Below, in pieces: positions 16,811 through 29,611 of a DNA stretch of 64,000 nt. The position numbers and the translations under genes were made by a program. The notes beneath the pieces were generated by a model that was not told the DNA's origin, ran no database searches, and saw nothing but the letters and a program-made list of their open reading frames with translations. The DNA comes from an uncultured bacterium (GTDB lineage Bacteria > Krumholzibacteriota > Krumholzibacteriia > LZORAL124-64-63), in contig CAVSGO010000007.1 in assembly GCA_963727525.1 (NCBI GenBank), positions 1,184,001-1,248,000 of the forward strand, read 5' to 3'. Within the stretch, counting starts at the first letter, position 1. Each line of letters opens with the position of its first letter.

Positions 16811-18229
16811 CTAGGAGGACACCTGCACCGTGTAGGTGACCGTCTTCTCGCCATCCTTCGGCACGTCGACGACGAACTCGAGCGCCTGCGCGCTGAGCTT
16901 CTGGAACGGCTGCGAACTCTCCAGCACCTCCCAATCGCCGCCCACCATCTCCTGCACGTGCACCGACACGGCCTCATCCTTGTGGTTGCGCAGGGTGATC
17001 GCGAACGTCGAACGGCTCACGGTGTCGGCGACCTTGCGAAAGTCCTTCTGCACACGCGTGGCCACCACGTCGAAGGCCTTGCCCACCTCGAGGTTCACAC
17101 GCTCGTCCTTCGGCGTGTGGTCGATGCGGTCCTCGCCCAGAAGTTGACGGCTGCCGCTCTGCGCCTCGCCATAGACCCGCACGACGCCCGCCGGCATGGG
17201 CAGACCGAGGTGGTTGTCCTGGCGGTTCTCGAAGGCGTAGGTCACCGTCACGTCCTGCGGCATCTCGCCCCAGCCGCCGCGCCTGAAGAACTGCCCCTGC
17301 GCCCGCGTCGTGTATTGCTTGGTCACCGTCACGCCGTCCGCGTCGAAGAGCGACACCTGCTTGGTCTGGTTGTCCTTGAGCGTCGTGGGCCAGTTCACCG
17401 TGTAGAGGTGGTAGTCGTAGAGCGCCTCCTCGGTGACGGCGCGGGCCTCGTCAGCCATCGCGTACACCTGCCCCTTCATCGCGATGGGCGGCCGGGCGGC
17501 CTGATGGATGTCGCCGGCGACGAGCATGAGCTTGGCGTCGTCGTAGGTGGCGCCGCTGCGATTGTCGACCGACACCCACGCCTGCAGACTCGCCTGGTCG
17601 CCCTTCGGCGTGAGCTGCAGAATGTAGTCCGCGGCCCAGCTCAGGCCACCGGTGAGATAGGATGCATCGATCTCGGCATCGCCGGCGCGCTTGGCCTCCG
17701 CACGCCACACGAGGGTGGGGCGGGCGCGTAGATCCGCGGGCAGCGATGGCAGCACGATGCGGCCGGGCATGTCGAAGACGATCTCACCATTCACCGCGTA
17801 CACCGGCCCGTTGGCCATGCCCAGCAGCTTGCCCGTGATGCGACCGCCGGTCTCCTGCTGCCAGGCGACGTCATGGCCCACGTACTTCTCCATGATCTTC
17901 TCGCGCGACATCAGATCGAACTCGTAGTTCTGCTCGAGCACGGACAAGCCCGTCTTGCCGCCGATCGCGAGCACCAGCGTCTTGGGTTGGATCTGCGACG
18001 GCACGCCCTGGAACTCGAGAGCGACAGCGCCGGCGGGCACCGCGACCCGACGCACCTCGCGCACAAGCCCGAGGTTCTGGTTGTAGACTGTCAGCTCGAG
18101 CTGGGTGCGCTGCGTGGGTTCGGACACCACGGTGGCCGGTGCGTCACCAGCCGCGCCGGCGGGCGCATCGGCCGCCAGCATCGCCCCGGACAGCGCCGCA
18201 AGCGTGAGGATTCGCAAGCGGTTGGACAT
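16811..18229 (-). CDS. DUF4139-domain secreted protein
   Basis: Signal peptide, LTVYNQNLGLVRE, LEQNYEFDL, YLTGGLSWAADY, DYHLY, GEDRIDHTP. Confidence 0.85.
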   Translation of the reverse strand: MSNRLRILTLAALSGAMLAADAPAGAAGDAPATVVSEPTQRTQLELTVYNQNLGLVREVRRVAVPAGAVALEFQGVPSQIQPKTLVLAIGGKTGLSVLEQNYEFDLMSREKIMEKYVGHDVAWQQETGGRITGKLLGMANGPVYAVNGEIVFDMPGRIVLPSLPADLRARPTLVWRAEAKRAGDAEIDASYLTGGLSWAADYILQLTPKGDQASLQAWVSVDNRSGATYDDAKLMLVAGDIHQAARPPIAMKGQVYAMADEARAVTEEALYDYHLYTVNWPTTLKDNQTKQVSLFDADGVTVTKQYTTRAQGQFFRRGGWGEMPQDVTVTYAFENRQDNHLGLPMPAGVVRVYGEAQSGSRQLLGEDRIDHTPKDERVNLEVGKAFDVVATRVQKDFRKVADTVSRSTFAITLRNHKDEAVSVHVQEMVGGDWEVLESSQPFQKLSAQALEFVVDVPKDGEKTVTYTVQVSS

Positions 18230-18341: not shown

Positions 18342-18725
18342 ATGCTGGGAACCGTCATCATCGCGGACGATGCACCTTTCATGCGGGCCATGTTGCGCGG
18401 GATCGTGACCGACCTCGGGCTGGAGGTCGCCGGCGAAGCCTCCGACGGCGCCGAGGCCGTGGCGCTCTACCGGCAACACGCCCCCACCCTCGCCCTGATC
18501 GATCTCACGATGCCCGGCGTCGATGGTGTCGAGGCCGTGCGACAGATCGTGGCTCATGACCCCGCCGCCGCACTCGTCATGGTGTCGGCGCTCGGACAGA
18601 AGGACGCCGTGCTCGCGGCGGTCAAGGCCGGCGCGCTCGACTTCATCATCAAGCCGTTCGAAGCCGACCGGGTCGAGGCCACCTTGCAGAAGATCCTCGG
18701 TCGCTTGCCCGTGACCGTGGCCTAG
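18342..18725 (+). CDS. cheY: Single-domain response regulator, CheY-like
   Basis: IIADDAPFMR, IDLTMP, MVSALGQ, FIIKPF; RBS GGAGG. Confidence 0.85.
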   Translation: MLGTVIIADDAPFMRAMLRGIVTDLGLEVAGEASDGAEAVALYRQHAPTLALIDLTMPGVDGVEAVRQIVAHDPAAALVMVSALGQKDAVLAAVKAGALDFIIKPFEADRVEATLQKILGRLPVTVA

Positions 18726-19527: not shown

Positions 19528-20373
19528 TCAGGCGTTCTCGCGCGCGAGGCGCGCGAGCCGGTAGTGGTGGCGCGCCTCAGGCGTGCTGCCGAGGGCGTCG
19601 TATGTGAGGGCGAGTTGATACTGCAGGCGGCTATCCTCGGGGAACGCCGCCTCGGCGGCCTGCAGCGCGGTGAGCGCTTCGGGAAAGCGCGTGAGCTTGT
19701 GCAGGCAGGTGCCGCGATAGAACTGGGCTCGCGTGAGCTGGGGCGCCTGCCGCAGCACACGATCGAAGCGTTCGAGGGCGTCGCCATAGCAGCCCTGACG
19801 TAGCAGACACATGCCCGCGTAATAGCTTCCGCGCGCGTCGGAAGGATCGGCGGCCACGGCCTTCTCGAAACAGTTGAGCGCCCGATCGAGCATGCCGGCC
19901 CGCAGATGCACCATCCCGAGCCCGTGGTAGGCATCACGATCCGGCTTGCTCGCGATCGCGGCCTCGAACGCGCGCACCGCCTCGTCGGTGCGCCCTTCCT
20001 CCGCGTACAGCGCGCCGAGGTTGTAATACGTCTCCGCCGATGCATCCTCGTGGAAGATCGCCTTGCGGTAGGCGCGCACCGCGTCGTCGCTGCGTCCGCG
20101 ACGGTCGAGGGTGACGCCAAGATTGGTCAACAACGCGCCGCTGGTGGGATTGACCGCGAGCCCGTCGCGGAACCAGCGCTCCGCGTCTTCGAGGTCGCCC
20201 GCCTTCAGGCACACGCAGCCGAGGCGGTAGTACCAGTCCCAGTGTCCGCTCTCCTGGACGACCGCGCGCCGGTAGGCGCGGACAGCCTCGGCCCAGTCGC
20301 GCTTCAGCTCGGCATCGCGACCGGCCTGGTACCACGCGGCGGCATCGGGTTGGGCTTCGGGTTGGGCGCACAT
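19528..20373 (-). CDS. TPR repeat protein (about 8 repeats), probably leaderless
   Basis: Tandem TPRs (YYRLG, LTNLG, YYNLG, YHGLG, YYAG, FYRG, YQLA); ATG 20373 lies 7 nt after a -10 box. Confidence 0.85.
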   Translation of the reverse strand: MCAQPEAQPDAAAWYQAGRDAELKRDWAEAVRAYRRAVVQESGHWDWYYRLGCVCLKAGDLEDAERWFRDGLAVNPTSGALLTNLGVTLDRRGRSDDAVRAYRKAIFHEDASAETYYNLGALYAEEGRTDEAVRAFEAAIASKPDRDAYHGLGMVHLRAGMLDRALNCFEKAVAADPSDARGSYYAGMCLLRQGCYGDALERFDRVLRQAPQLTRAQFYRGTCLHKLTRFPEALTALQAAEAAFPEDSRLQYQLALTYDALGSTPEARHHYRLARLARENA

Positions 20374-20380
20374 GGGCGGT

Positions 20381-20409
20381 ATGGTAGTCGAGGCGGGTCG
20401 GTCGGTCAA
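20381..20409 (-). promoter_or_regulatory. sigma70 promoter for TPR-uppP (leaderless)
   Basis: TTGACC-N17-TACCAT-N7-ATG. Confidence 0.7.
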
Positions 20410-21188
20410 CGATCCTCGATGTGCACCTCGAGCAGGATCCGCGTCTCGCCGCTCGTTCCCAGGGCGCTACGCGGAATGCGGACCGGGACCACCAGCGCCA
20501 CCGGCGCATCGGACCGCGGGCCATCCTCGTGGTAGCCGGGCGTGTGCGGGGTTCCCGGCACGGGTGGCGAGGAGTCGAATCCGGCCGGGCTGCCGTCGGG
20601 GCCGGGAACCGGGCTCTGGGCGGCGAGCTGCTGCTGCAGGATCTGCCCGATGGTGAGGCTCAGGATGGCCTTGAGCGCCTCACGCACCCCCTCGCCGTTG
20701 GTCACGTCCGCCGGGAACGACAGCAAGCCCCACGGATTGAGCAGGCTCTCGAGGCGGTCCACCGGCAGCACCGCGGCGGCATCGCGGTTGTTGTACTGCA
20801 GCACCACCGGCACCGACATGAGATCGCGGTTCCAGGTATCGAGGAAGCCCTTCAGCGCCTCCATGGCACTGAGCGCCTGGTCGAGCTCGTCGGGGCCCGA
20901 ACTGCAAGCGAAGACGATCCCATCGAAGGGCGGACGCTGTGTCGGCGCCAGCGCCAGGTTCTCGCGCCCCACGTCCACGGCCTGGACGAAGACCTGCCAG
21001 TCGCCCTGCTGGCCATTGCGCAGCATGAAGGCGATCTGGCGACTCGAGTCCTCCGTGGCGACGGCCAGCCGGTGCTCCGGGGGGAGCGATTGCTGGATTC
21101 GCGCCAGGGTCTGTCGCTTTCCGACGCCTGCCGGACCATAGTACAGGATCCGGCAAGATCGTGTGGCCGTATGCTGGGCAGTGAGCAC
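20406..21188 (-). CDS. Degenerate MglA-like small GTPase with C-terminal extension
   Basis: RILYYGPAGVGK, FDGIVF, VPVVLQYNNRD, LNP...FPA....GEGV..ALKAI resemble MglA; GTG 21188 after GGAGG. Confidence 0.75.
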   Translation of the reverse strand: MLTAQHTATRSCRILYYGPAGVGKRQTLARIQQSLPPEHRLAVATEDSSRQIAFMLRNGQQGDWQVFVQAVDVGRENLALAPTQRPPFDGIVFACSSGPDELDQALSAMEALKGFLDTWNRDLMSVPVVLQYNNRDAAAVLPVDRLESLLNPWGLLSFPADVTNGEGVREALKAILSLTIGQILQQQLAAQSPVPGPDGSPAGFDSSPPVPGTPHTPGYHEDGPRSDAPVALVVPVRIPRSALGTSGETRILLEVHIEDR

Positions 21189-21233
21189 CTTGCGCCTCCG
21201 TCGCGAACCATCGCTTGTGAGCAACACCTGGCA

Positions 21234-21500: not shown

Positions 21501-21941
21501 ATGGCCAGCAATACCCCGCAGATCCTCAAAACGATGTTCTCCCGGCTGCTGAACGTGGAGGTCGAACCGGCGCTCGCCGCCAAGCTGAGCGCGGTCATCG
21601 ACAGCGTGACCGAGCGGGTGGGCAACAACTTCGACCTCGAGACGGTCCAGGGCCAGAACACGTTCCGGGCACTGCTGTGCTCGATGGTCGTTCACGGCTG
21701 GGGCAACGGGATGCATCCCTTCCACAACCCTGAGAACGACCTCGAAGGCCAGCCCATCGAGGTGCGGGTGAGTAAGGACATCCTGATGCAGATGGCTGAT
21801 CTGCAGTCGCTGCGGTACGTGAAGAAGGATGCGGAAGGGCGGGTCAGGAAGGCCCTCTTCGAACCCGATCAGAACACCCGGATCCGCCAGCAGATCGACG
21901 ACATCCTCGGCGAGATCAGTGCGACCAAGTGGTCCGAATAG
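21501..21941 (+). CDS. Hypothetical protein (146 aa)
   Basis: RBS GGGAG, ATG 21501, normal globular composition and high third-position GC; family not recognised. Confidence 0.8.
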   Translation: MASNTPQILKTMFSRLLNVEVEPALAAKLSAVIDSVTERVGNNFDLETVQGQNTFRALLCSMVVHGWGNGMHPFHNPENDLEGQPIEVRVSKDILMQMADLQSLRYVKKDAEGRVRKALFEPDQNTRIRQQIDDILGEISATKWSE

Positions 21942-21998: not shown

Positions 21999-22553
21999 CT
22001 AGAAGAGTTTCTGGCCCTCGGCGAGGATCTCGTTCAGCGCGTCCTTGAAGTACGTCGTGCCGCTGGCGGCCTCGGCCCCCACTTTCTCCTTGTACAGCTC
22101 CCACGATTTCTTGATCTCCGGCCCCAGGACCTCGAGCAGATTGCCGTCGGCCAGGGCGCGATCGCGCGCCTCGCGGTTGTACACGACGATATCCGAGACG
22201 AGCGCCCGGGCGAGCATCTCGGTCTTGTCGCGACGCCGTCGGGCCGTCGACCGCGTAGGCGCTTCCGCCACGGCCACGGCCGGTTCGGTACGCGCTGCGG
22301 CGGGACGCGGCGCCGGTGTCGCCGGCGCGGTGGGCGCCTCGACGGGCGACGTGAAGTTCTCGAAGCTCTCGAGGCTCTCGAGCCCCGTCACGGCGGCTGC
22401 CGGACGCGGCGAGGGCGCAGCGGTCTCCGGCGCCGTACCATCGAGGGTGAAGACGGTCTTGCAGTTCGGACAGCGTACGCGCACCTTGCGCCGGGGCACC
22501 TTGTCGTCGTTCAGGCGGTACCGCACGCGGCAACCGGTGCAGGTGGTGATCAT
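21999..22553 (-). CDS. Zinc-ribbon (MJ0042-type) protein with Pro/Ala linker and RomX-like C-terminal domain
   Basis: CTGC...CPNC; C-terminus LARALVSDIVVYN...EIKKSWELYKEKV...YFKDALNEIL; RBS GAGGAGAGG. Confidence 0.75.
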   Translation of the reverse strand: MITTCTGCRVRYRLNDDKVPRRKVRVRCPNCKTVFTLDGTAPETAAPSPRPAAAVTGLESLESFENFTSPVEAPTAPATPAPRPAAARTEPAVAVAEAPTRSTARRRRDKTEMLARALVSDIVVYNREARDRALADGNLLEVLGPEIKKSWELYKEKVGAEAASGTTYFKDALNEILAEGQKLF

Positions 22554-25018: not shown

Positions 25019-26458
25019 TCAGCGAACCCGCTTGAAGACGTGCGTCAGCCCTTTCGACTCCACGAGAGGGCTGGTGGCGCCGATATCGAGCTTGGCGATC
25101 GTCGAGCGCAGTGGCTCGACCATATCCTTCGGATTCACCCACCCGATATCGCCCCCCTGCGCCGCTGTCGGCCCTGTCGAGAAGCGCACGGCCAGCGAGC
25201 CGAAGTCGTCGCCGCGCGCGAGCGCGACCTTGAGGCTGTCGGCCGCCCGCGGGTCACCGGTGACGATATGCATGAGATGCACCTTGCCGGTCTCGCGTGC
25301 GCTGGCGACCTGCGCCCCTTCCGTCGTCAGTTCCCGGCGCCATTGCGCGAGCTCGCCCTGGCTCGATGGGTCGCGCCGGTCGAGTAGGCCGACGACCTGC
25401 AGCGCATCGTCGTAGCGGCCGAGCTTCTCCAGGATCTGCCCCTTCACCACCAGACCCGACAGCTGTGACGAATCCTGCGCCACCGCGCGGTCGACCTCGG
25501 ACAGGGCTTGCTCCAGCTCGCCGACACCCTCGAGGTGGATACCATAGTTGAGGTGGCCGATCGGATCGTCGGGCGCCAGGGTGACGTAGCGCGCGAATTG
25601 CTCGCCTGCCTCGTCGACGTGGCCCTGGATCTCGAGCACGTTGGCCAGGTTGAAGCGGTGCCGCGGCTCCTCGGGCGCCATCTTCACCGCCTGACGAAGT
25701 GCCGCGAGAGCCGAATCGGGCTTGTTGGCCGAGAACCACGCCTCGCCAAGGCCTCCGTAGGTTTCACCGCTGGGTTGCATCGCCACGGCGCGCTGGAAAA
25801 TGCCCACAGCTTGCCTGGACTGGTGCGCCATGATCTTCAGTTCGCCCAGCGTCACCAGGTCCCCGGCATTCTCCCCCTCGACATCCATGGCGTCGCGGAG
25901 ATGCTCCGCCGCCTGGCCCCAGAGCTGCTTGCGCTTGGCGAGATTCGCGAGCAGACGGTGCAGCCAGGGTTCGTCCATACCCTGGATCTGGAGCTGGTTG
26001 AGCAAGTTGTAGGCCTTGGCGTCCTGGCCCCGGTTCATCGCCAGACGCGCCAAACCCTCGAGAATGCCGGCGTGGCGCTGGTCGAGCGCAAGACCCTTCT
26101 CCCACTCGGCCTCGGCGGAGTCGAGCTTGCCCGTGCCCAGAAGCGCACGGCCGTACCAGTAATGGGCGTCGGCATTGTCCGGCGCCAGCCGCGCCGCCTT
26201 CTCGCCGTAGTCCACGCCCGCCGCGTTGTCATCCTGCGACACCGCGATCACGGTGAGCGGCAGCAGTGCGTCCACGGAGTCGCCGGAGCGCTGCAAGCAC
26301 TCCTTCAGTGCCGGCTTCGCCGCGGCGTAATCCTGAGCCTTGAAGAGCCGCACCCCCTCGCCGCACGGGTCGGCCAGGGGAGCCATGGGTTGTGCACGGG
26401 CGGCGGTGGCGGCGAGGCAGAGCGCAAGGAGCAGGACGGACAGACGGTTCACGGACAT
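25019..26458 (-). CDS. Exported TPR protein with C-terminal parvulin PPIase domain
   Basis: Signal peptide, many TPRs, HLMHIV...FGSLA..FS.GP.AAQGGDIGW...SPLVES..G.HVFK. Confidence 0.85.
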   Translation of the reverse strand: MSVNRLSVLLLALCLAATAARAQPMAPLADPCGEGVRLFKAQDYAAAKPALKECLQRSGDSVDALLPLTVIAVSQDDNAAGVDYGEKAARLAPDNADAHYWYGRALLGTGKLDSAEAEWEKGLALDQRHAGILEGLARLAMNRGQDAKAYNLLNQLQIQGMDEPWLHRLLANLAKRKQLWGQAAEHLRDAMDVEGENAGDLVTLGELKIMAHQSRQAVGIFQRAVAMQPSGETYGGLGEAWFSANKPDSALAALRQAVKMAPEEPRHRFNLANVLEIQGHVDEAGEQFARYVTLAPDDPIGHLNYGIHLEGVGELEQALSEVDRAVAQDSSQLSGLVVKGQILEKLGRYDDALQVVGLLDRRDPSSQGELAQWRRELTTEGAQVASARETGKVHLMHIVTGDPRAADSLKVALARGDDFGSLAVRFSTGPTAAQGGDIGWVNPKDMVEPLRSTIAKLDIGATSPLVESKGLTHVFKRVR

Positions 26459-26519
26459 CCTCTCGGGTTTCGCGACGGTGACGCGCTGCAAACAACCCCG
26501 GATCCCGCTCCGGGTTCCC

Positions 26520-28175
26520 CTAAGCGATCCAGCGCCTCACCGGTCCGAGCCAGAATCCGCGGCTGGCCCACCACCAGCGCGGCTGATCGGGTCTCACCGC
26601 GCGGCGTGCCTCCACCAACCGTTCGGCGTCGGCGCCCCGGCCCTGGCGACGCCAGAGGCCGGCCAGCGGGACGATCCAGGCATCCGGCCACACCGCGGCG
26701 GGCGGCGCCGCCGCGCTACCCGCGGCCGCCGCAGCCACGAGCCAGAGCGCTCCGGTCTCCTCGTCGGCCGTTCCCACGTCGATCAGCGACTGCGCCAGCG
26801 ACAGGGCGGTGTCAGGTTGCCCATCGCGCAGCTCTCGATGAATGGCAAGCTGCTGCCAGGCCGCCGCTCCGGGCTGGTCCGCGGCCGCCTCCGGCGGAAC
26901 CTCGTCCGGCGCCTCGGGCGCCAGCCCCATCCGCACGGCGAGTCGCGCGCGCAGCAGCAGCAGACGTTGGTCCTGCCCGGCACTGCCGGGCCAGTGCGCC
27001 ACGCCGTGCTCCACACGATCGGTGAGGCCGAGCGTGAGCGCGTATGCCAGCGCGAGAAAGTGCAACTCCACGTCGCCGGTCCACAGCTCCATCAGCTCGT
27101 CGAGACGCGCGAGGCAACGATCGGGACGTTCGTCGGCGTCGTCGCACGCGGCCAGTAGCAGGGCCGCGCGTGCGAAGTGATGCGGGAGATCGTCCCAGCC
27201 CGCGAGAAGCCTGCGGCTCGCGTCGACATCGCCGAGCAGGAACGCCACCACCGCGCGCAGATAGGCCAGGAAGATCTCCTCGTGCCGGCCCGCGGCGCCC
27301 TCGGTGCGCGGCATGGCGTCGGCGAGGAAGTCGTGCGCCGCCGCGACGTCGCCCTGATCGGCGAGGATCAGGCCTTTCAGGCACACGGCCGTGCGATAGC
27401 GACCATTGATGGCCAGCGACGCGTCCACCTCGCGCAAGGCGTCGTCATCGCGTCCGACCTGGAAGAGTGCCGCAGCGTGTTTGGCACGGATGTCCGGATA
27501 CCGCGGGTGCTCGGCCGCGAGTTCGCCCAGCCGGGCGAGCCCCTGCTCCCACTCCCCCGCCTGGCAACGCGCCACGGCATCGGCGAGCCGATCTTTCAGG
27601 GCGTCTCCTGCCACCTCCTGGCGCAGGAGTCGCGGCAGATCGTTGGGCAGAGTCGTGGCGTCGAATCCGCCATCGCGGGCGAGCACGTCGAGCAGGCGGT
27701 GCGGCACCCGCCGACCCGACTCCACCAGAGCGTCGAGGCTATTCGCGGACTCGCGCTCGCGGTGTTGCGCCTGCAGCGCCGTCGCCTCGAGCAAACGCGC
27801 CTCGCAGTAGTCGGGATTGCGACGCAGCGCCTCGCGCGCCGCCGTGAGCGCGAGCGACCAGTCGCCCGCCAGACCGGCGGCCGCGCCGCAGAAGAATTGC
27901 AGGTCGGGAAATTCGGGCCAGGCGTCAGCAGCAGCCCGCAGGTCGTCGAGCGCACGCGCCGGTTCGCCGGCGCGTAGCAGCCGGCGCCCCTCGGACATGA
28001 GCGCCTTGCGCAGATAGAAGCCCGCGAGGGACCCCCGCGGGCTGCGATCGTCGAGCGCCCCTGCCTCCCGCAGCCGCGTGGCCGCCTCGGCGTAACGCCC
28101 CCCCTCGAAGAGCGCGATGCCCTCCGCGTAGGGATCACCGCCCCGACCACCGAAGAGCTTGCTGAAGATGGTCAT
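26520..28175 (-). CDS. TPR repeat protein directly after ftsZ
   Basis: ATG 1 nt after the ftsZ stop; TPR-like units (PEFPDL, NPDYCEA, HPRYPDI). Confidence 0.75.
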   Translation of the reverse strand: MTIFSKLFGGRGGDPYAEGIALFEGGRYAEAATRLREAGALDDRSPRGSLAGFYLRKALMSEGRRLLRAGEPARALDDLRAAADAWPEFPDLQFFCGAAAGLAGDWSLALTAAREALRRNPDYCEARLLEATALQAQHRERESANSLDALVESGRRVPHRLLDVLARDGGFDATTLPNDLPRLLRQEVAGDALKDRLADAVARCQAGEWEQGLARLGELAAEHPRYPDIRAKHAAALFQVGRDDDALREVDASLAINGRYRTAVCLKGLILADQGDVAAAHDFLADAMPRTEGAAGRHEEIFLAYLRAVVAFLLGDVDASRRLLAGWDDLPHHFARAALLLAACDDADERPDRCLARLDELMELWTGDVELHFLALAYALTLGLTDRVEHGVAHWPGSAGQDQRLLLLRARLAVRMGLAPEAPDEVPPEAAADQPGAAAWQQLAIHRELRDGQPDTALSLAQSLIDVGTADEETGALWLVAAAAAGSAAAPPAAVWPDAWIVPLAGLWRRQGRGADAERLVEARRAVRPDQPRWWWASRGFWLGPVRRWIA

Positions 28176-28176
28176 C

Positions 28177-29505
28177 TCAGTCCATGTACTTGCGCGTGTA
28201 TGCTGGCGCATTCAGGTCGTCCAGCAGAGCATCGCTGCGGAAACCGCCGCTCTTCGGCCGCGCAGGACGCAGTTCCTGCGCTTCGCCCACCGGCCTGAGG
28301 TACCGCTGCGACGTCTCGTTCGACGACTCCGTCGGCGCCTGCGGCATCACCACCTCGGGCTCGTCGCTGCCTCCGGCCGCGGCCATGGCCGCCATGGGCT
28401 CAGCTTCCTGCACAAGTTCAGGGTCCGGAGCGATCGCCGCAACCGGTTCGGGCACGACCTCGACGACAGGCTCGGGCTCCACCGATGCCAACACCACAGG
28501 CTCCGGCTCCGCCACGAACGGCCGACGGTACGCCGGCGTCGTCTGCGCGCTCGCCGGGAAGCCGGTGGCGATGACGGTGACCTGCAGCTCGTCGCCCAGG
28601 CTGTCGTCGTTGCCGTAGCCGAAGATGACGTGGGCTTGCGGGCCCGCCGCTTCCTGGATGTGCTGCATCGCACCCGAGGTGTCCATGAGCGTGACCTGCT
28701 TACCGACCAGATTCACGAGCACCGCCTGGGCGCCGTGGATGTCGACGTTCTCGAGCAGCGGCGAGGCCACGGCCGCGCGGGCGGCCTTGATCGCCCGCTC
28801 CTCGCCCGTCGCCGTGCCGGTACCCACGAGCGCCACGCCCATGCCCTGCATGACAGTGCGGACGTCGGCGAAGTCGAGGTTCACCACGGCCGGACGCGAG
28901 ATGATCTCGTAGATGCCCCGCGTGGCCTGGTAGAGCACGTCGTCCGCGGTGCGGAACGCTTCCTGCATGGTGGCCGTGGGCGACACGACCTCGAGCAGCC
29001 GCTGGTTAGGAATGACGATGAGCGTGTCCACATGCTCGCGCAGAGCGGCGATGCCGGCCTCGGCCTGGCGCCGCCGCACGTCGCCCTCGAAGAGGAATGG
29101 CTTGGTGACGATCGCCACGGTCAGCGCGCCAGCCGCCTTCGCCACCTCTGCCACCACCGGCGCGGCCCCCGTGCCTGTGCCGCCACCCATGCCGGCGGTG
29201 ACGAAGACCATGTCGGCCCCGTCGACGATGGACGCGAGGTGCTCGCGATCCTCCTCGGCCGCCTTGCGCCCGATCTCGGGATTCCCGCCCGCGCCGAGGC
29301 CTCGCGTCAAACGTGAACCGATAGCCGTAACCTGATGGGCTTTCGAGTCCTTCAGGACCTGCGCGTCGGTATTGATGGCGTGGAATTCGACACCGGAGAG
29401 CCCAGCCTCGATCATACGATTGACGGCGTTGCCGCCTGCCCCGCCGATGCCGAGCACCTTGATATTAGCCAGCCGCTCGGGGTTGTCGGCAAACTGGATA
29501 TTCAT
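28177..29505 (-). CDS. ftsZ: Cell division protein FtsZ
   Basis: [29 protein letters not shown]-terminal [22 protein letters not shown]. Confidence 0.98.
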
Positions 29506-29611
29506 ATTGGACCGCCTCCTCCTTGAGAAAGGTCCAGCCGCAGAGACTCCTTGTCTCATCTGATTGAATTAACACAAACGGAGCGATTGGCCAAGGGGAT
29601 TCTGGGAATGC

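Follow-up and report, generated by a model that had tools for sequence, protein, structure and literature searches.

The 64,000-nucleotide stretch of DNA analysed here (the window), from an uncultured bacterium of the class Krumholzibacteriia, carries a gene for a relative of the polarity GTPase MglA in which most nucleotide motifs have been altered. We consider it probable that the product is a conserved pseudo-GTPase that no longer cycles and that acts as a constitutive adaptor of its own polarity-type module. Since the residues for GTP hydrolysis are lost, the protein probably serves permanently as an adaptor, next to a RomX-like partner and a TPR protein, and not as an on/off switch.

Gene, start site and reading frame

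The gene lies on the reverse strand and has the following features:

20406..21188, (-) strand: degenerate MglA-like coding sequence, 260 aa, with a GTG start and the stop codon at 20406-20408 (from the ORF list)
21195..21199, (-) strand: GGAGG Shine-Dalgarno sequence, six bases 5' of the GTG at 21188 (read from the sequence)

The longest frame at the locus is a 273-aa ORF that also starts with GTG (20406..21227, reverse strand). The start at 21188, which had been chosen in the initial annotation, is nevertheless to be preferred, because of the GGAGG upstream of it and because the N-termini of the orthologs align there. The resulting protein is identical to a database protein (P0001). All strings quoted in the initial annotation (YYGPAGVGKR, SSRQIAF, AVDVG, NNRD, a Pro-rich linker and VVPVRIPR...RILLEVHIE) are found in this ORF.

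Of the 54 loci in which the TPR gene described below is present as well, 53 have an open frame; the remaining locus (L056) is a partial match only. An in-frame TGA was found in one of the 39 strong genomic matches (G130). Among the 61 genomes of the same family, 39 contain the gene and 22 do not, so that some lineages can dispense with it.

The G domain resembles MglA

20616..21188, (-) strand: G domain, residues 1-191, AlphaFold2 pLDDT mostly 90-97

By sequence and by predicted fold, the G domain is closest to MglA. Searches of Pfam and NCBIfam with the protein returned no family above threshold. The best phmmer match in the PDB is MglA of Thermus thermophilus (E 2.3e-12), followed by MglA of Myxococcus xanthus (E 3.4e-11), in both cases over residues 24-196, and an hhalign comparison of the family profile with the canonical MglA profile gave a probability of 100 and an E value of 1.6e-40 over 185 columns. 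The AlphaFold2 model (mean pLDDT 86.4) has the order b1-a1-b2-b3-b4-a3-b5-a4-b6-a5, with no helix predicted between b3 and b4, a segment that ranges from 16 to 19 residues among 120 homologs. When this model was used as a Foldseek query, the top 11 matches were all MglA (E down to 9.7e-15; first non-MglA match 1.5e-9), with TM-scores of 0.71-0.79 against MglA structures when normalised to the target. The relationship to MglA that had been read from the sequence is thus borne out by phmmer, hhalign and Foldseek. The G-domain fold expected of the pseudoGTPase class, whose members no longer hydrolyse GTP but may or may not bind nucleotide, is present in the AlphaFold2 and Foldseek results.

Nucleotide motifs are replaced

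Four stretches correspond to nucleotide motifs of MglA:

21114..21137, (-) strand: P-loop GPAGVGKR, residues 18-25, with Arg25 at the position of MglA Thr26
21033..21041, (-) strand: switch I remnant R50-Q51-I52, with R50 at the Arg-finger position and Q51 aligned to Thr54
20961..20975, (-) strand: switch II remnant D72-V-G74-R75-E76, replacing T-V-P-G-Q (hhalign register)
20781..20792, (-) strand: G4 remnant N133-N-R-D136, replacing NKRD

All motif counts given here cover 120 homologs, and the register relative to MglA is taken from the hhalign profile alignment. In the P-loop, G18, G23, K24 and R25 are each found in 120/120 sequences. Arg therefore stands in every homolog where the GxxxxGK[ST] motif has the Ser or Thr with the Mg2+-binding hydroxyl; in MglA, it is Thr26 that binds Mg (PMC3199381). 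At position 51, the equivalent of the Mg/gamma-phosphate ligand Thr54, we found Q (97), E (17), H (5) and A (1), and Thr or Ser in 0/120. Retention of the switch-I Arg, which had been suspected before, holds: R50, aligned to the intrinsic Arg-finger position (MglA Arg53), is present in 117/120.

Switch II required a correction. The initial annotation was right that TVPGQ (where MglA has Thr78 instead of the usual Asp, and Gln82 as the catalytic residue) is replaced and that the catalytic Gln is lost, to Arg in this protein, but the replacing string is not AVDVG. In the profile alignment, TVPGQ corresponds to D72, a deletion of one residue, V73, G74 and R75; the Gly is kept and Thr has become Asp. 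D72 (120/120), G74 (119/120) and E76 (118/120) are invariant or nearly so, while position 75 (MglA Gln82) holds R in 62 homologs, Q in 25, H in 8, K in 7 and other residues in 18. The G4 motif [NT]KxD reads NNRD: N133 is kept in 118/120 and R135 in 116/120, Lys occurs at position 134 in only 4/120, and position 136 is D (85), E (13), G (8), A (5), N (4), S (3), K (1) or P (1). The changes from GKT to GKR and from NKRD to NNRD had thus been read correctly. The G5 Ala is kept in 104/120. The hhalign alignment also places a three-residue deletion in the b2 segment, whose Phe residues contact MglB in MglA (PMC3199381).

In M. xanthus, the MglA changes T26N, T54A, Q82A/R and K142A gave no complementation, according to the available text of PMC3000849. 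The replacement of both Mg2+ ligands and of the catalytic Gln suggests that GTP hydrolysis has been lost here, and since the switch II helix appears to be gone as well, a GTP/GDP cycle would no longer be possible. The argument of the initial annotation that the altered motifs speak against a working GTPase cycle is supported by these replacements.

Linker and C-terminal tail

20499..20615, (-) strand: Pro-rich linker, residues 192-230, pLDDT 55-76 and <50 at residues 217-222
20553-20567, (-) strand: PPVPG motif within the linker, residues 208-212
20409..20498, (-) strand: C-terminal tail VVPVRIPR...RILLEVHIEDR, residues 231-260, pLDDT 82-87

The Pro-rich linker noticed at the outset contains a short motif that is nearly invariant (P208 in 120, P209 in 119, P211 in 117 and G212 in 118 of 120 homologs). 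The tail is conserved as well, with P235 and P239 each in 120/120, R240 in 118, L253 in 116 and E254 in 115. It had been described as beta-rich, which the model does not bear out, as DSSP found no strands in this part. A tail of this type is also found at the end of the canonical long-form orthologs introduced below and of many long MglA-like proteins of other phyla.

The altered motifs are under selection

In 83 close pairs, dN/dS ranged from 0.07 to 0.37, which is within the range of the UppP and ZnR genes in the same pairs. Only close pairs were used for dN/dS values, because dS saturates at low values when GC3 is near 0.85-0.9, as it is here; the wider set (all pairs with dS 0.1-1.2, median dN/dS 0.41) served only for the relative order of the regions. 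The relative medians rose from the G domain (0.36) over the tail (0.43) to the linker (0.73), so the G domain is the most constrained part. The motif changes are therefore fixed and under purifying selection across the clade and are not decay. Strain-specific decay, which the initial annotation had named as the alternative, was looked for and is contradicted by Arg25 in 120/120 and by close-pair ratios like those of neighbouring genes.

A conserved locus

The gene occupies a slot in the order RecG / ZnR-RomX-like / orf146 / degenerate MglA-like gene / TPR / UppP. The neighbours discussed in this section are:

19528..20409, (-) strand: TPR protein, 293 aa, TTG start; Pfam TPR_2, E 2.6e-44
21501..21941, (+) strand: orf146, divergently transcribed, a very conserved protein with family unassigned
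18342..18725, (+) strand: CheY-type single-domain response regulator; Pfam Response_reg, E 3.2e-26

In 54 of 55 related loci the TPR gene is the next gene downstream, on the same strand. Reading the N-terminus of its product by eye gave no sign of a signal peptide. Its TTG start overlaps the stop of the MglA-like gene as TTGA, but this overlap is particular to the window genome. In 53 related loci, the two genes are mostly separated by 11-103 bases, and they overlap in two of these loci; an operon-like arrangement is therefore supported, and we rejected conserved translational coupling. We also rejected an apparent MglA-like/TPR fusion (P0124, a 639-aa ORF in L125), which arises from a frameshift in the linker and runs through an Arg-rich wrong frame into the TPR frame. 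A complex prediction for the MglA-like and TPR proteins gave no answer (score 0.00), which counts neither for nor against binding.

The upstream neighbour orf146 is found in 54/55 loci at 72-82% identity, and at 53-61% in other families of the class. It has no match in Pfam, the PDB sequences or the Atlas, and its AlphaFold2 model is poor (mean pLDDT 65.9). The response regulator, which matches CheY structures down to E 9.8e-33, is encoded on the strand opposite to the module and is present in related loci wherever the contig extends far enough. The module as a whole is located near a cell-division and cell-wall cluster.

An MglB gene lies within four genes for 390/449 family members, as given in the accessible part of PMC4316618. 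The degenerate gene has none within that distance: the sole Roadblock/MglB match in the genome (C7:1283613-1283873) is beside the canonical mglA, about 78 kb away. A second MglA-like match exists in 39/39 genomes with the degenerate gene, and in the window genome it is this canonical mglA.

Stepwise origin from a long-form gene

In 7/7 loci from 7 genomes outside family f1, each picked as a long MglA-like match, the same slot holds a protein of 369-527 aa with all canonical motifs (GKTTN, DRTLFFDFLP, TVPGQ and NK[RQ]D) and the same tail. Syntenic intermediates occur in three genera of the window's family; they keep GKT/GKS and NKRD/NHQD/NKQD, and TVPGQ and the switch-I Thr are absent from them. 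Degeneration was thus stepwise, as these GKT/GKS intermediates exist.

The GKR clade forms a monophyletic group with the intermediates in the tree (100/100), and the stem of this group measures 1.94 changes per site. We do not take the tree as proof of orthology: owing to the very long branch, it does not recover the clade as sister to the long forms of Krumholzibacteriia. Orthology rests on synteny and the tail, and on this basis the degenerate gene corresponds by position to a second, long-form MglA-like gene, which is fully canonical in sister families of the class, and is not a fresh MglA duplicate. The earlier description as an MglA paralog that competes for MglA partners has to be revised accordingly, as the gene has conserved neighbours of its own.

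The degenerate protein has all the features of a tail-bearing long-form class, namely a G domain, a linker, the tail and the slot between orf146 and TPR. Long forms from other Krumholzibacteriia families and from one named Eisenbacteria record likewise combine a G domain and a disordered linker with a tail of the pattern h-V-P-V-x-h-P-R...R-h-h-L-E-h-x-h, and those of Krumholzibacteriia share the slot and the neighbours. In the canonical long forms, however, the MglA motifs are intact and the linkers are 150-330 residues long, whereas here the motifs are replaced and the linker has about 40 residues. Our literature search found no description of this class; the survey in PMC4316618, in its available part, took only proteins of 150-240 aa.

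A paired change in the RomX-like neighbour

21999..22553, (-) strand: zinc-ribbon plus RomX-like protein, 184 aa; Pfam Zn_ribbon_4, E 3.4e-12
22446-22553, (-) strand: zinc ribbon (ZnR), residues 1-36 of this protein
22017-22229, (-) strand: RomX-like, putatively three-helix domain, residues 109-179 of this protein

The RomX-like domain was recognised by phmmer against the PDB (RomX, 8zna_A, E 6.8e-9; 71 residues, covering RomX residues 7-77), and the ZnR in the same way matches that of GltJ/AgmX (7zok_A, E 3.5e-4). In GltJ, it is the linker to which MglA-GTP binds, whereas the ZnR interacts with the linker and with MglB (PMC11135422). No RomX-like match other than the protein at 21999..22553 was found in the genome at E <= 10, with a single-sequence query that a distant second copy could escape. 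This protein differs from M. xanthus RomX in its N-terminal zinc ribbon, to which the RomX-like part is joined by a Pro/Ala-rich linker. Both proteins have the residues equivalent to RomX Arg-14 and Asp-19, but the equivalent of Arg-11 is Met in the GKR clade. In fact, Met is found at this position in 49/49 readable GKR-type loci, whereas the 5/5 intermediate and 10/10 canonical loci have Arg and Met occurs in 0/15. The change from Arg to Met and the P-loop change from Thr to Arg each occurred once and on the same branch, so the 49/0 split amounts to one event and is not statistical proof of contact.

Helix 1 of RomX binds MglA-GTP, and an R11A/R14A double mutant abolishes binding; the interface, as presented in the available text of bioRxiv 10.1101/2024.02.20.581209, is an AlphaFold model backed by mutants and not a solved complex.

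Possible functions

In the reading that we consider probable, the ancestor would have been a second long-form MglA-like GTPase with G domain, disordered linker and conserved tail, belonging to a Krumholzibacteriia module together with the zinc-ribbon/RomX-like protein, orf146 and a cytoplasmic TPR protein. Within one GTDB family, the losses began with the switch-I Thr and with Pro-Gly-Gln and the helix of switch II; replacement of the P-loop Thr by Arg and loss of the G4 Lys followed. Lys24, Arg25, Asp72 and Glu76, with Arg50, probably lock the former active site in one state, which may be self-liganded or may hold a nucleotide without Mg2+. As a constitutive adaptor, the protein would bind its RomX-like neighbour through the face of the G domain, and the linker motif and the tail would bind other partners, for which the TPR protein is the obvious candidate.

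A bolder version, which is possible but which we regard as doubtful, is that the paired change in the two proteins hard-wired the switch, yielding a self-liganded mimic of the GTP state that binds the RomX-like protein permanently and without nucleotide. The guanidinium of Arg25 would be placed where Mg2+ normally sits, the network of Lys24, Arg25, Asp72 and Glu76 would imitate the GTP state, and the helix of the RomX-like partner that points into the nucleotide pocket would have lost its Arg-11 equivalent on the same branch.

The initial annotation had also considered a decoy or competitor. Such a protein would mimic MglA and titrate the partners of the canonical MglA, for example the sole RomX-like protein, as a built-in dominant-negative. 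The presence of a second MglA-like match in every genome with the gene, of a canonical mglA beside mglB in the window genome, and of one RomX-like domain (at E <= 10) and one Roadblock gene in that genome would suit this role, as the RomX-like protein might be shared. There is also a parallel to M. xanthus alleles: in this protein, Asp naturally takes the place of Thr78 and the P-loop Thr is missing, and in the accessible part of PMC3000849 T78D is described as a stable allele that is dominant over wild type, and T26N, a change of the Ras type, as modelled on a dominant-negative. Nevertheless, we find this role unlikely. The gene traces back to a distinct long-form GTPase that has conserved neighbours of its own, and not to the mglBA operon, the b2 segment that would contact MglB (PMC3199381) is three residues shorter, and the parallel change in the RomX-like partner fits a dedicated pair better than a shared one. 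A decoy is thus less economical than a dedicated adaptor.

It is more improbable still that the protein remains an enzyme, as a Mg2+-independent NTPase or nucleotide-dependent switch in which Arg25 replaces the metal and Glu76 (or Gln75) activates the water. For such an activity speak the invariant GxxxxGK, the conservation of Asp72 and Glu76, the Arg-finger position (117/120), Gln75 in 25/120, and the retention of N133 and the G5 Ala. Moreover, Mg2+ adds nothing to the nucleotide affinity of T. thermophilus MglA (PMC3199381), so that loss of the metal ligands need not abolish binding. However, position 75 is not conserved and accepts 13 different residues, the guanine-specifying Asp136 is replaced in 35/120 (by neither Asp nor Glu in 22/120), the G4 Lys is rare and no switch II helix is predicted. 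We know of no precedent for an Arg at the Walker A Ser/Thr position that supports catalysis. Finally, a decaying gene or annotation artefact with no function is scarcely credible. The in-frame TGA in G130, the linker frameshift in L125/P0124 and the 22 family genomes without the gene could be read in this way, but the frame is open in all but one of the loci examined, the altered P-loop and the switch II Asp are invariant in 120/120, dN/dS is low in close pairs, the GGAGG is correctly spaced from the start and the AlphaFold2 model is confident.

Comparison with known systems

Compared with MglA of M. xanthus and T. thermophilus (Group 1 of the Ras superfamily), the protein keeps the switch-I Arg at the Arg-finger position and the third-position Arg of G4, together with the 'QYN' context. 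It differs in having GKR for GKT, Gln for the switch-I Thr and D-x-G-R-E for TVPGQ, in the lost G4 Lys, in a switch II that is shortened by one residue and lacks a predicted helix, and in the three-residue deletion in the b2 segment, which in MglA makes the screw movement and contacts MglB. It also has no adjacent mglB and a C-terminal extension of 70 residues. In the last two points it can be likened, by description, to SofG, an orphan MglA paralog of M. xanthus that is also without a cognate MglB and longer than MglA, but SofG has retained the Arg finger and is active as a GTPase in vitro, according to the text available from PMC4316618.

A precedent for the change from an oscillating to a fixed polarity factor is MglA of Bdellovibrio bacteriovorus, which is without its former GAP and acts at one pole together with RomR and the TPR protein Bd2492; in the accessible text of PMC3983030, its GTP-binding residues are conserved, whereas they are replaced in the degenerate protein, whose TPR gene adjoins directly downstream. 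Eukaryotic pseudoGTPases such as the psGD of AAGAB and the pG domains of p190RhoGAP keep the G fold as a protein-binding module after loss of the G motifs. They belong to an unrelated lineage and, as class i members, have lost the P-loop motif wholly, as described in the available parts of PMC12490416 and PMC5593906, whereas GxxxxGK is invariant here.

Significance

The MglA family is the model for a Ras-like switch that sets and reverses bacterial cell polarity, and our literature search found no description of a natural, strongly selected member that has abandoned the switch. A single gene slot offers an evolutionary series that runs from canonical through intermediate to fully degenerate forms, and the RomX-like neighbour changed on the branch on which the P-loop changed. 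This makes two questions concrete: which MglA-type surfaces matter without nucleotide cycling, and does RomX recognise the protein or the nucleotide? If the two proteins were indeed hard-wired together, a polarity module timed by GTP would have become a constitutive landmark. The locus also points to an undescribed module, composed of the ZnR-RomX-like protein, orf146, a long-form MglA-like protein with its tail and the TPR protein, which is conserved throughout an entire uncultured class.

Gene model and family assignment

The gene for the degenerate MglA-like protein can be read from two starts:

20406..21227, minus strand: longer form of the ORF, 273 aa, GTG start
20406..21188, minus strand: shorter form, 260 aa
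21195-21199, minus strand: GGAGG, read from the sequence, six bases before the GTG at 21188

The start at 21188 is the better choice, because of this GGAGG and because the N-termini of the database protein P0001 and its orthologs coincide with it. Pfam and NCBIfam gave no family match for the protein, the best being a sub-threshold AAA_24 hit (E 0.04). Among the sequences of solved structures, MglA was the sole match (T. thermophilus MglA, E 2.3e-12; M. xanthus MglA, E 3.4e-11; residues 24-196 of the 273-aa form). An hhalign comparison of 38 family members with 13 canonical MglA proteins gave a probability of 100 (E 1.6e-40, 185 columns). The AlphaFold2 model, with the family alignment as input (mean pLDDT 86.4, pTM 0.73), had MglA structures as its top 11 Foldseek matches in the PDB (E from 9.7e-15; TM-score to target 0.71-0.79), followed by Rab29 (1.5e-9). 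Since sequence, profile and Foldseek matches all point to MglA, the protein is an MglA-family G domain with a C-terminal extension.

Changes in the nucleotide motifs

All strings quoted in the initial annotation were found in the sequence (YYGPAGVGKR, SSRQIAF, AVDVG, NNRD, the Pro-rich stretch and VVPVRIPR...RILLEVHIE). We read the motifs in the register of the hhalign profile alignment with canonical MglA. In the P-loop, Arg25 occupies the position of MglA Thr26. In switch I, Arg50 lies at MglA Arg53 and Gln51 at Thr54, and three residues of the b2 segment are absent (FLP of DFLP). In switch II, Asp72 lies at MglA Thr78 and is followed by a one-residue deletion, Gly74 at Gly81 and Arg75 at Gln82; Asp72 is the usual G3 residue, absent from MglA itself. 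In G4, NKRD is replaced by N133-N-R-D136. The annotation had aligned TVPGQ with AVDVG; the profile register differs and keeps the switch-II Gly. The claimed loss of the catalytic Gln stands, with Arg75 in its place, as do GKR and NNRD. Small GTPases carry a switch II helix between strands b3 and b4. The model has no helix between b3 (62-72) and b4 (90-96), a segment that is poorly conserved and 16-19 residues long among homologs.

In MglA, Q82A is reported to abolish intrinsic and MglB-stimulated hydrolysis (PMC3199381); T26N, T54A, Q82A, Q82R and K142A are described as M. xanthus alleles without complementation, and T78D as stable and dominant (PMC3000849). The degenerate protein thus unites, in nature, several changes of which each alone inactivates MglA.

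Conservation and distribution

A word-indexed protein search returned 271 proteins at E <= 1e-3. The 120 matches listed are 46-100% identical and 258-347 aa long and, where named, are called 'hypothetical' or 'MglA' and come from Krumholzibacteria.

Conservation of positions in the degenerate protein among the 120 matches listed (of 271)
G18, G23, K24, R25: 120/120 each
N27: 119/120
R50: 117/120
Position 51: Q 97, E 17, H 5, A 1
D72: 120/120
G74: 119/120
Position 75: R 62, Q 25, H 8, K 7, others 18
E76: 118/120
N133: 118/120
Position 134: Lys in only 4/120
R135: 116/120
Position 136: D 85, E 13, G 8, A 5, N 4, S 3, K 1, P 1

The gene is under purifying selection. Its NG86 dN/dS was 0.07-0.37 over 83 close locus pairs (one further pair gave no value); the same pairs gave 0.04-0.37 for UppP and 0.10-0.39 for the ZnR gene, which encodes the zinc-ribbon protein upstream. 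By region, dN/dS rose from the G domain (0.36) to the tail (0.43) and the linker (0.73) in the 307 pairs whose dS was 0.1-1.2; saturation of synonymous sites at a GC3 near 0.85-0.9 inflates the absolute values, and the ranking stays informative.

The family is tight. In an exhaustive profile search only 16 representatives scored at E <= 1e-30, and scores fell from 1e-41 to 1e-31, where ordinary MglA-like proteins start. Scanning 151 genomes of the phylum sample, we found strong matches (E <= 1e-67) in 39/61 genomes of the window's GTDB family, 22 being without the gene, and in 0/90 genomes of the other eight families. One of the 39 (G130:C15:44166-44810) has an in-frame TGA and a match to residues 2-224 only, which is either a sequencing error or a real loss in that lineage.

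A conserved slot that holds a canonical GTPase in other families

The neighbourhood was fixed across 55 related loci in public MAGs. Directly downstream, on the same strand, 54/55 loci have the TPR gene, the exception ending at a contig edge. The divergent orf146 is upstream in 54/55 and the ZnR gene beyond it in 49/55, the other six having <760 bases upstream. The flanks are RecG on one side and, on the other, genes for UppP, CheY and DUF4139 proteins. A 639-aa 'MglA-like plus TPR' ORF in one MAG (L125 2867-4786, = P0124) is not a true fusion; it is produced by a frameshift within the linker.

In seven genomes outside the window's family (families f3, f5, f7 and f8, plus genome G076) the long MglA-like match occupies the same slot in 7/7 cases, between divergent orf146 and the TPR gene, with RecG and ZnR. 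These proteins, 369-527 aa long, contain all canonical MglA motifs, followed by a long acidic/Pro-rich linker and a tail of the same kind as that of the degenerate protein, for example IVIPVRVPREKL...LEIVLQLEIE. The degenerate gene thus sits where these families have a canonical GTPase, in a module that includes RomX-like and TPR proteins. Long tail-bearing forms fell outside the range of the survey that defined the MglA groups, which is described as covering only 150-240-aa proteins (PMC4316618).

In three genera of the window's family the slot holds intermediates with GKT or GKS and NKRD, NHQD or NKQD; TVPGQ and the switch-I Thr are already gone and the tail is kept. G2 and G3 (hydrolysis machinery and switch) were thus lost first, then the G1 hydroxyl and the G4 Lys. 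Of 80 loci anchored on orf146, 53 had a GKR-type divergent neighbour, 5 an intermediate and 11 a canonical long form; in the other 11 it was not found. In a maximum-likelihood tree built from 48 G domains, the GKR clade had 100/98 support and was monophyletic with the intermediates (100/100), the stem of this group being 1.94 changes per site long. Renewed constraint followed a burst of change. Tail-bearing long forms formed a 100/100 clade; the tree leaves open where the long GKR/intermediate branch attaches.

Linker and C-terminal tail

The linker (residues 192-230) has low confidence in the model; its PPVPG is nearly invariant among homologs. The last 30 residues are conserved (P235 and P239 120/120, R240 118/120 among the matches listed). 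The tail had been called beta-rich, but the model places it at pLDDT 82-87 and assigns no strands. Many long MglA-like proteins from other phyla end in a tail of this type, one tail-bearing representative being from Eisenbacteria. The tail is therefore ancestral and has outlasted the nucleotide motifs, which marks it as a main functional element.

The long MglA-like proteins P0129-P0265, from many phyla, have canonical G domains, long linkers and one of several endings: the V-P-V...L-x-L-x tail of the degenerate protein, a basic amphipathic (KKKKGFFKRLFG-like) helix, or a hydrophobic, probably transmembrane segment. These endings look like alternative anchoring devices and appear to be undescribed in the literature consulted.

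Neighbouring genes

21999-22553, minus strand: ZnR gene, product of 184 aa (zinc ribbon, Pro/Ala-rich linker, RomX-like three-helix domain)
21501-21941, plus strand: orf146, the most conserved gene of the neighbourhood
18342-18725, plus strand: CheY-type single-domain response regulator (E 9.8e-33 to solved CheY chains)
16811-18229, minus strand: DUF4139/DUF4140 protein, 472 aa, likely signal peptide

The upstream protein carries a zinc ribbon of the MJ0042 type (Pfam E 3.4e-12) matching the ZnR of GltJ/AgmX (7zok_A, E 3.5e-4), and its C-terminal 71 residues match M. xanthus RomX (8zna_A, E 6.8e-9). A single-sequence search at E <= 10 gave no other RomX-like match in the genome, and the architecture of the protein recalls the ZnR-linker switch of GltJ. 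RomX-MglA binding is reported to require GTP, and an AlphaFold model turns helix 1 of RomX towards the nucleotide pocket; exchange activity is lost in both the R11A/R14A and the D19A mutant, and R11A/R14A also loses binding (bioRxiv 10.1101/2024.02.20.581209). More recent work makes the case for RomRX as an effector, not a GEF (PMC13408092).

The RomX-like domain is very conserved, with the Arg-14 and Asp-19 equivalents kept in the loci where the stretch was read. The Arg-11 equivalent splits exactly with P-loop type: Met in 49/49 readable GKR-type loci (4 more unreadable), Arg in 5/5 intermediate and 10/10 canonical loci (1 more unreadable). Direct contact near the pocket would be expected to give such a split; because one clade means one event, it is a lead rather than a test. 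The preprint model (bioRxiv 10.1101/2024.02.20.581209) puts three MglA glutamates at the RomX interface. Mapped by hand from the alignment with the solved MglA sequences, Glu-111 falls on Asp103, invariant among the 120 matches listed, and Glu-115 on Ser or Ala.

No signal peptide is evident in the downstream TPR protein. Known TPR partners of MglA are SgmX (PMC7519303, PMC7668184) and Bd2492 of Bdellovibrio (PMC3983030). For the product of orf146, identity is 72-82% within the family and still 53-61% across the class; dN/dS goes down to 0.01-0.2, and the invariant motifs include HGWG.GMHP and LFEPD.N.R. It had no match in Pfam, PDB sequences or Atlas, and its AlphaFold2 model is poor (pLDDT 65.9). 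In related loci, the CheY-type gene is kept beside the module on the opposite strand. Because RomX binds a receiver domain in M. xanthus, this regulator is a possible input to the module. The DUF4139/DUF4140 gene belongs to the conserved neighbourhood of most related loci.

A division and cell-wall cluster lies at 28-38 kb of the window (MraY, MurD, FtsW, MurC and FtsZ among its members). At its end, between RecG and ftsZ, 25019-29559 (minus strand) encodes two large TPR proteins, one with a C-terminal PPIase domain. PilB/PilT-type ATPases are encoded in the genome.

Possible function

In the MglA fold of the degenerate protein neither Mg2+ ligand remains, the catalytic Gln and the G4 Lys are missing, and no switch II helix is predicted. 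We infer from its sequence that it is incapable of GTPase cycling. The invariant charged residues Lys24, Arg25, Arg50, Asp72 and Glu76 around the former active site would hold one conformation, and the protein, as a constitutive adaptor, would link the RomX-like protein to any partner of the tail and the PPVPG motif. We regard this reading as reasonably likely. The protein may still bind nucleotide: among the 120 matches listed, GxxxxGK is invariant, N133 is retained in 118 and the G5 Ala in 104, and Mg2+ is reported to make no contribution to the nucleotide affinity of MglA (PMC3199381). However, the G4 Lys is gone and the guanine-specifying Asp is replaced in 35/120 of these matches. We hold an unconventional active NTPase to be improbable.

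The initial annotation had also offered a decoy or competitor. A second, MglA-like match is present in each of the 39 gene-bearing genomes; in the window's genome it is a canonical mglA (GKTTN, DRTLFFDF, TVPGQ, NKRD) about 78 kb away, immediately downstream of a Roadblock/LC7 gene; the genome gave no other Roadblock match. That the degenerate protein serves as a decoy for the partners of this canonical MglA seems unlikely to us. Decay deserves almost no credence: the altered residues are fixed (R25 in 120/120 listed) and dN/dS is 0.07-0.37.

The degenerate protein belongs to the MglA family by descent. Of the features that define the family it lacks the G1, G3 and G4 motifs and MglB coupling, and it should therefore not be annotated as MglA. 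It is a putative pseudoGTPase in the way it works, a class described mainly in eukaryotes (PMC12490416). Our literature search for an MglA-type pseudoGTPase, inactive or degenerate MglA paralogs and Krumholzibacter MglA found no description. Although its host is uncultured, the protein is subject matter for bacterial polarity research.
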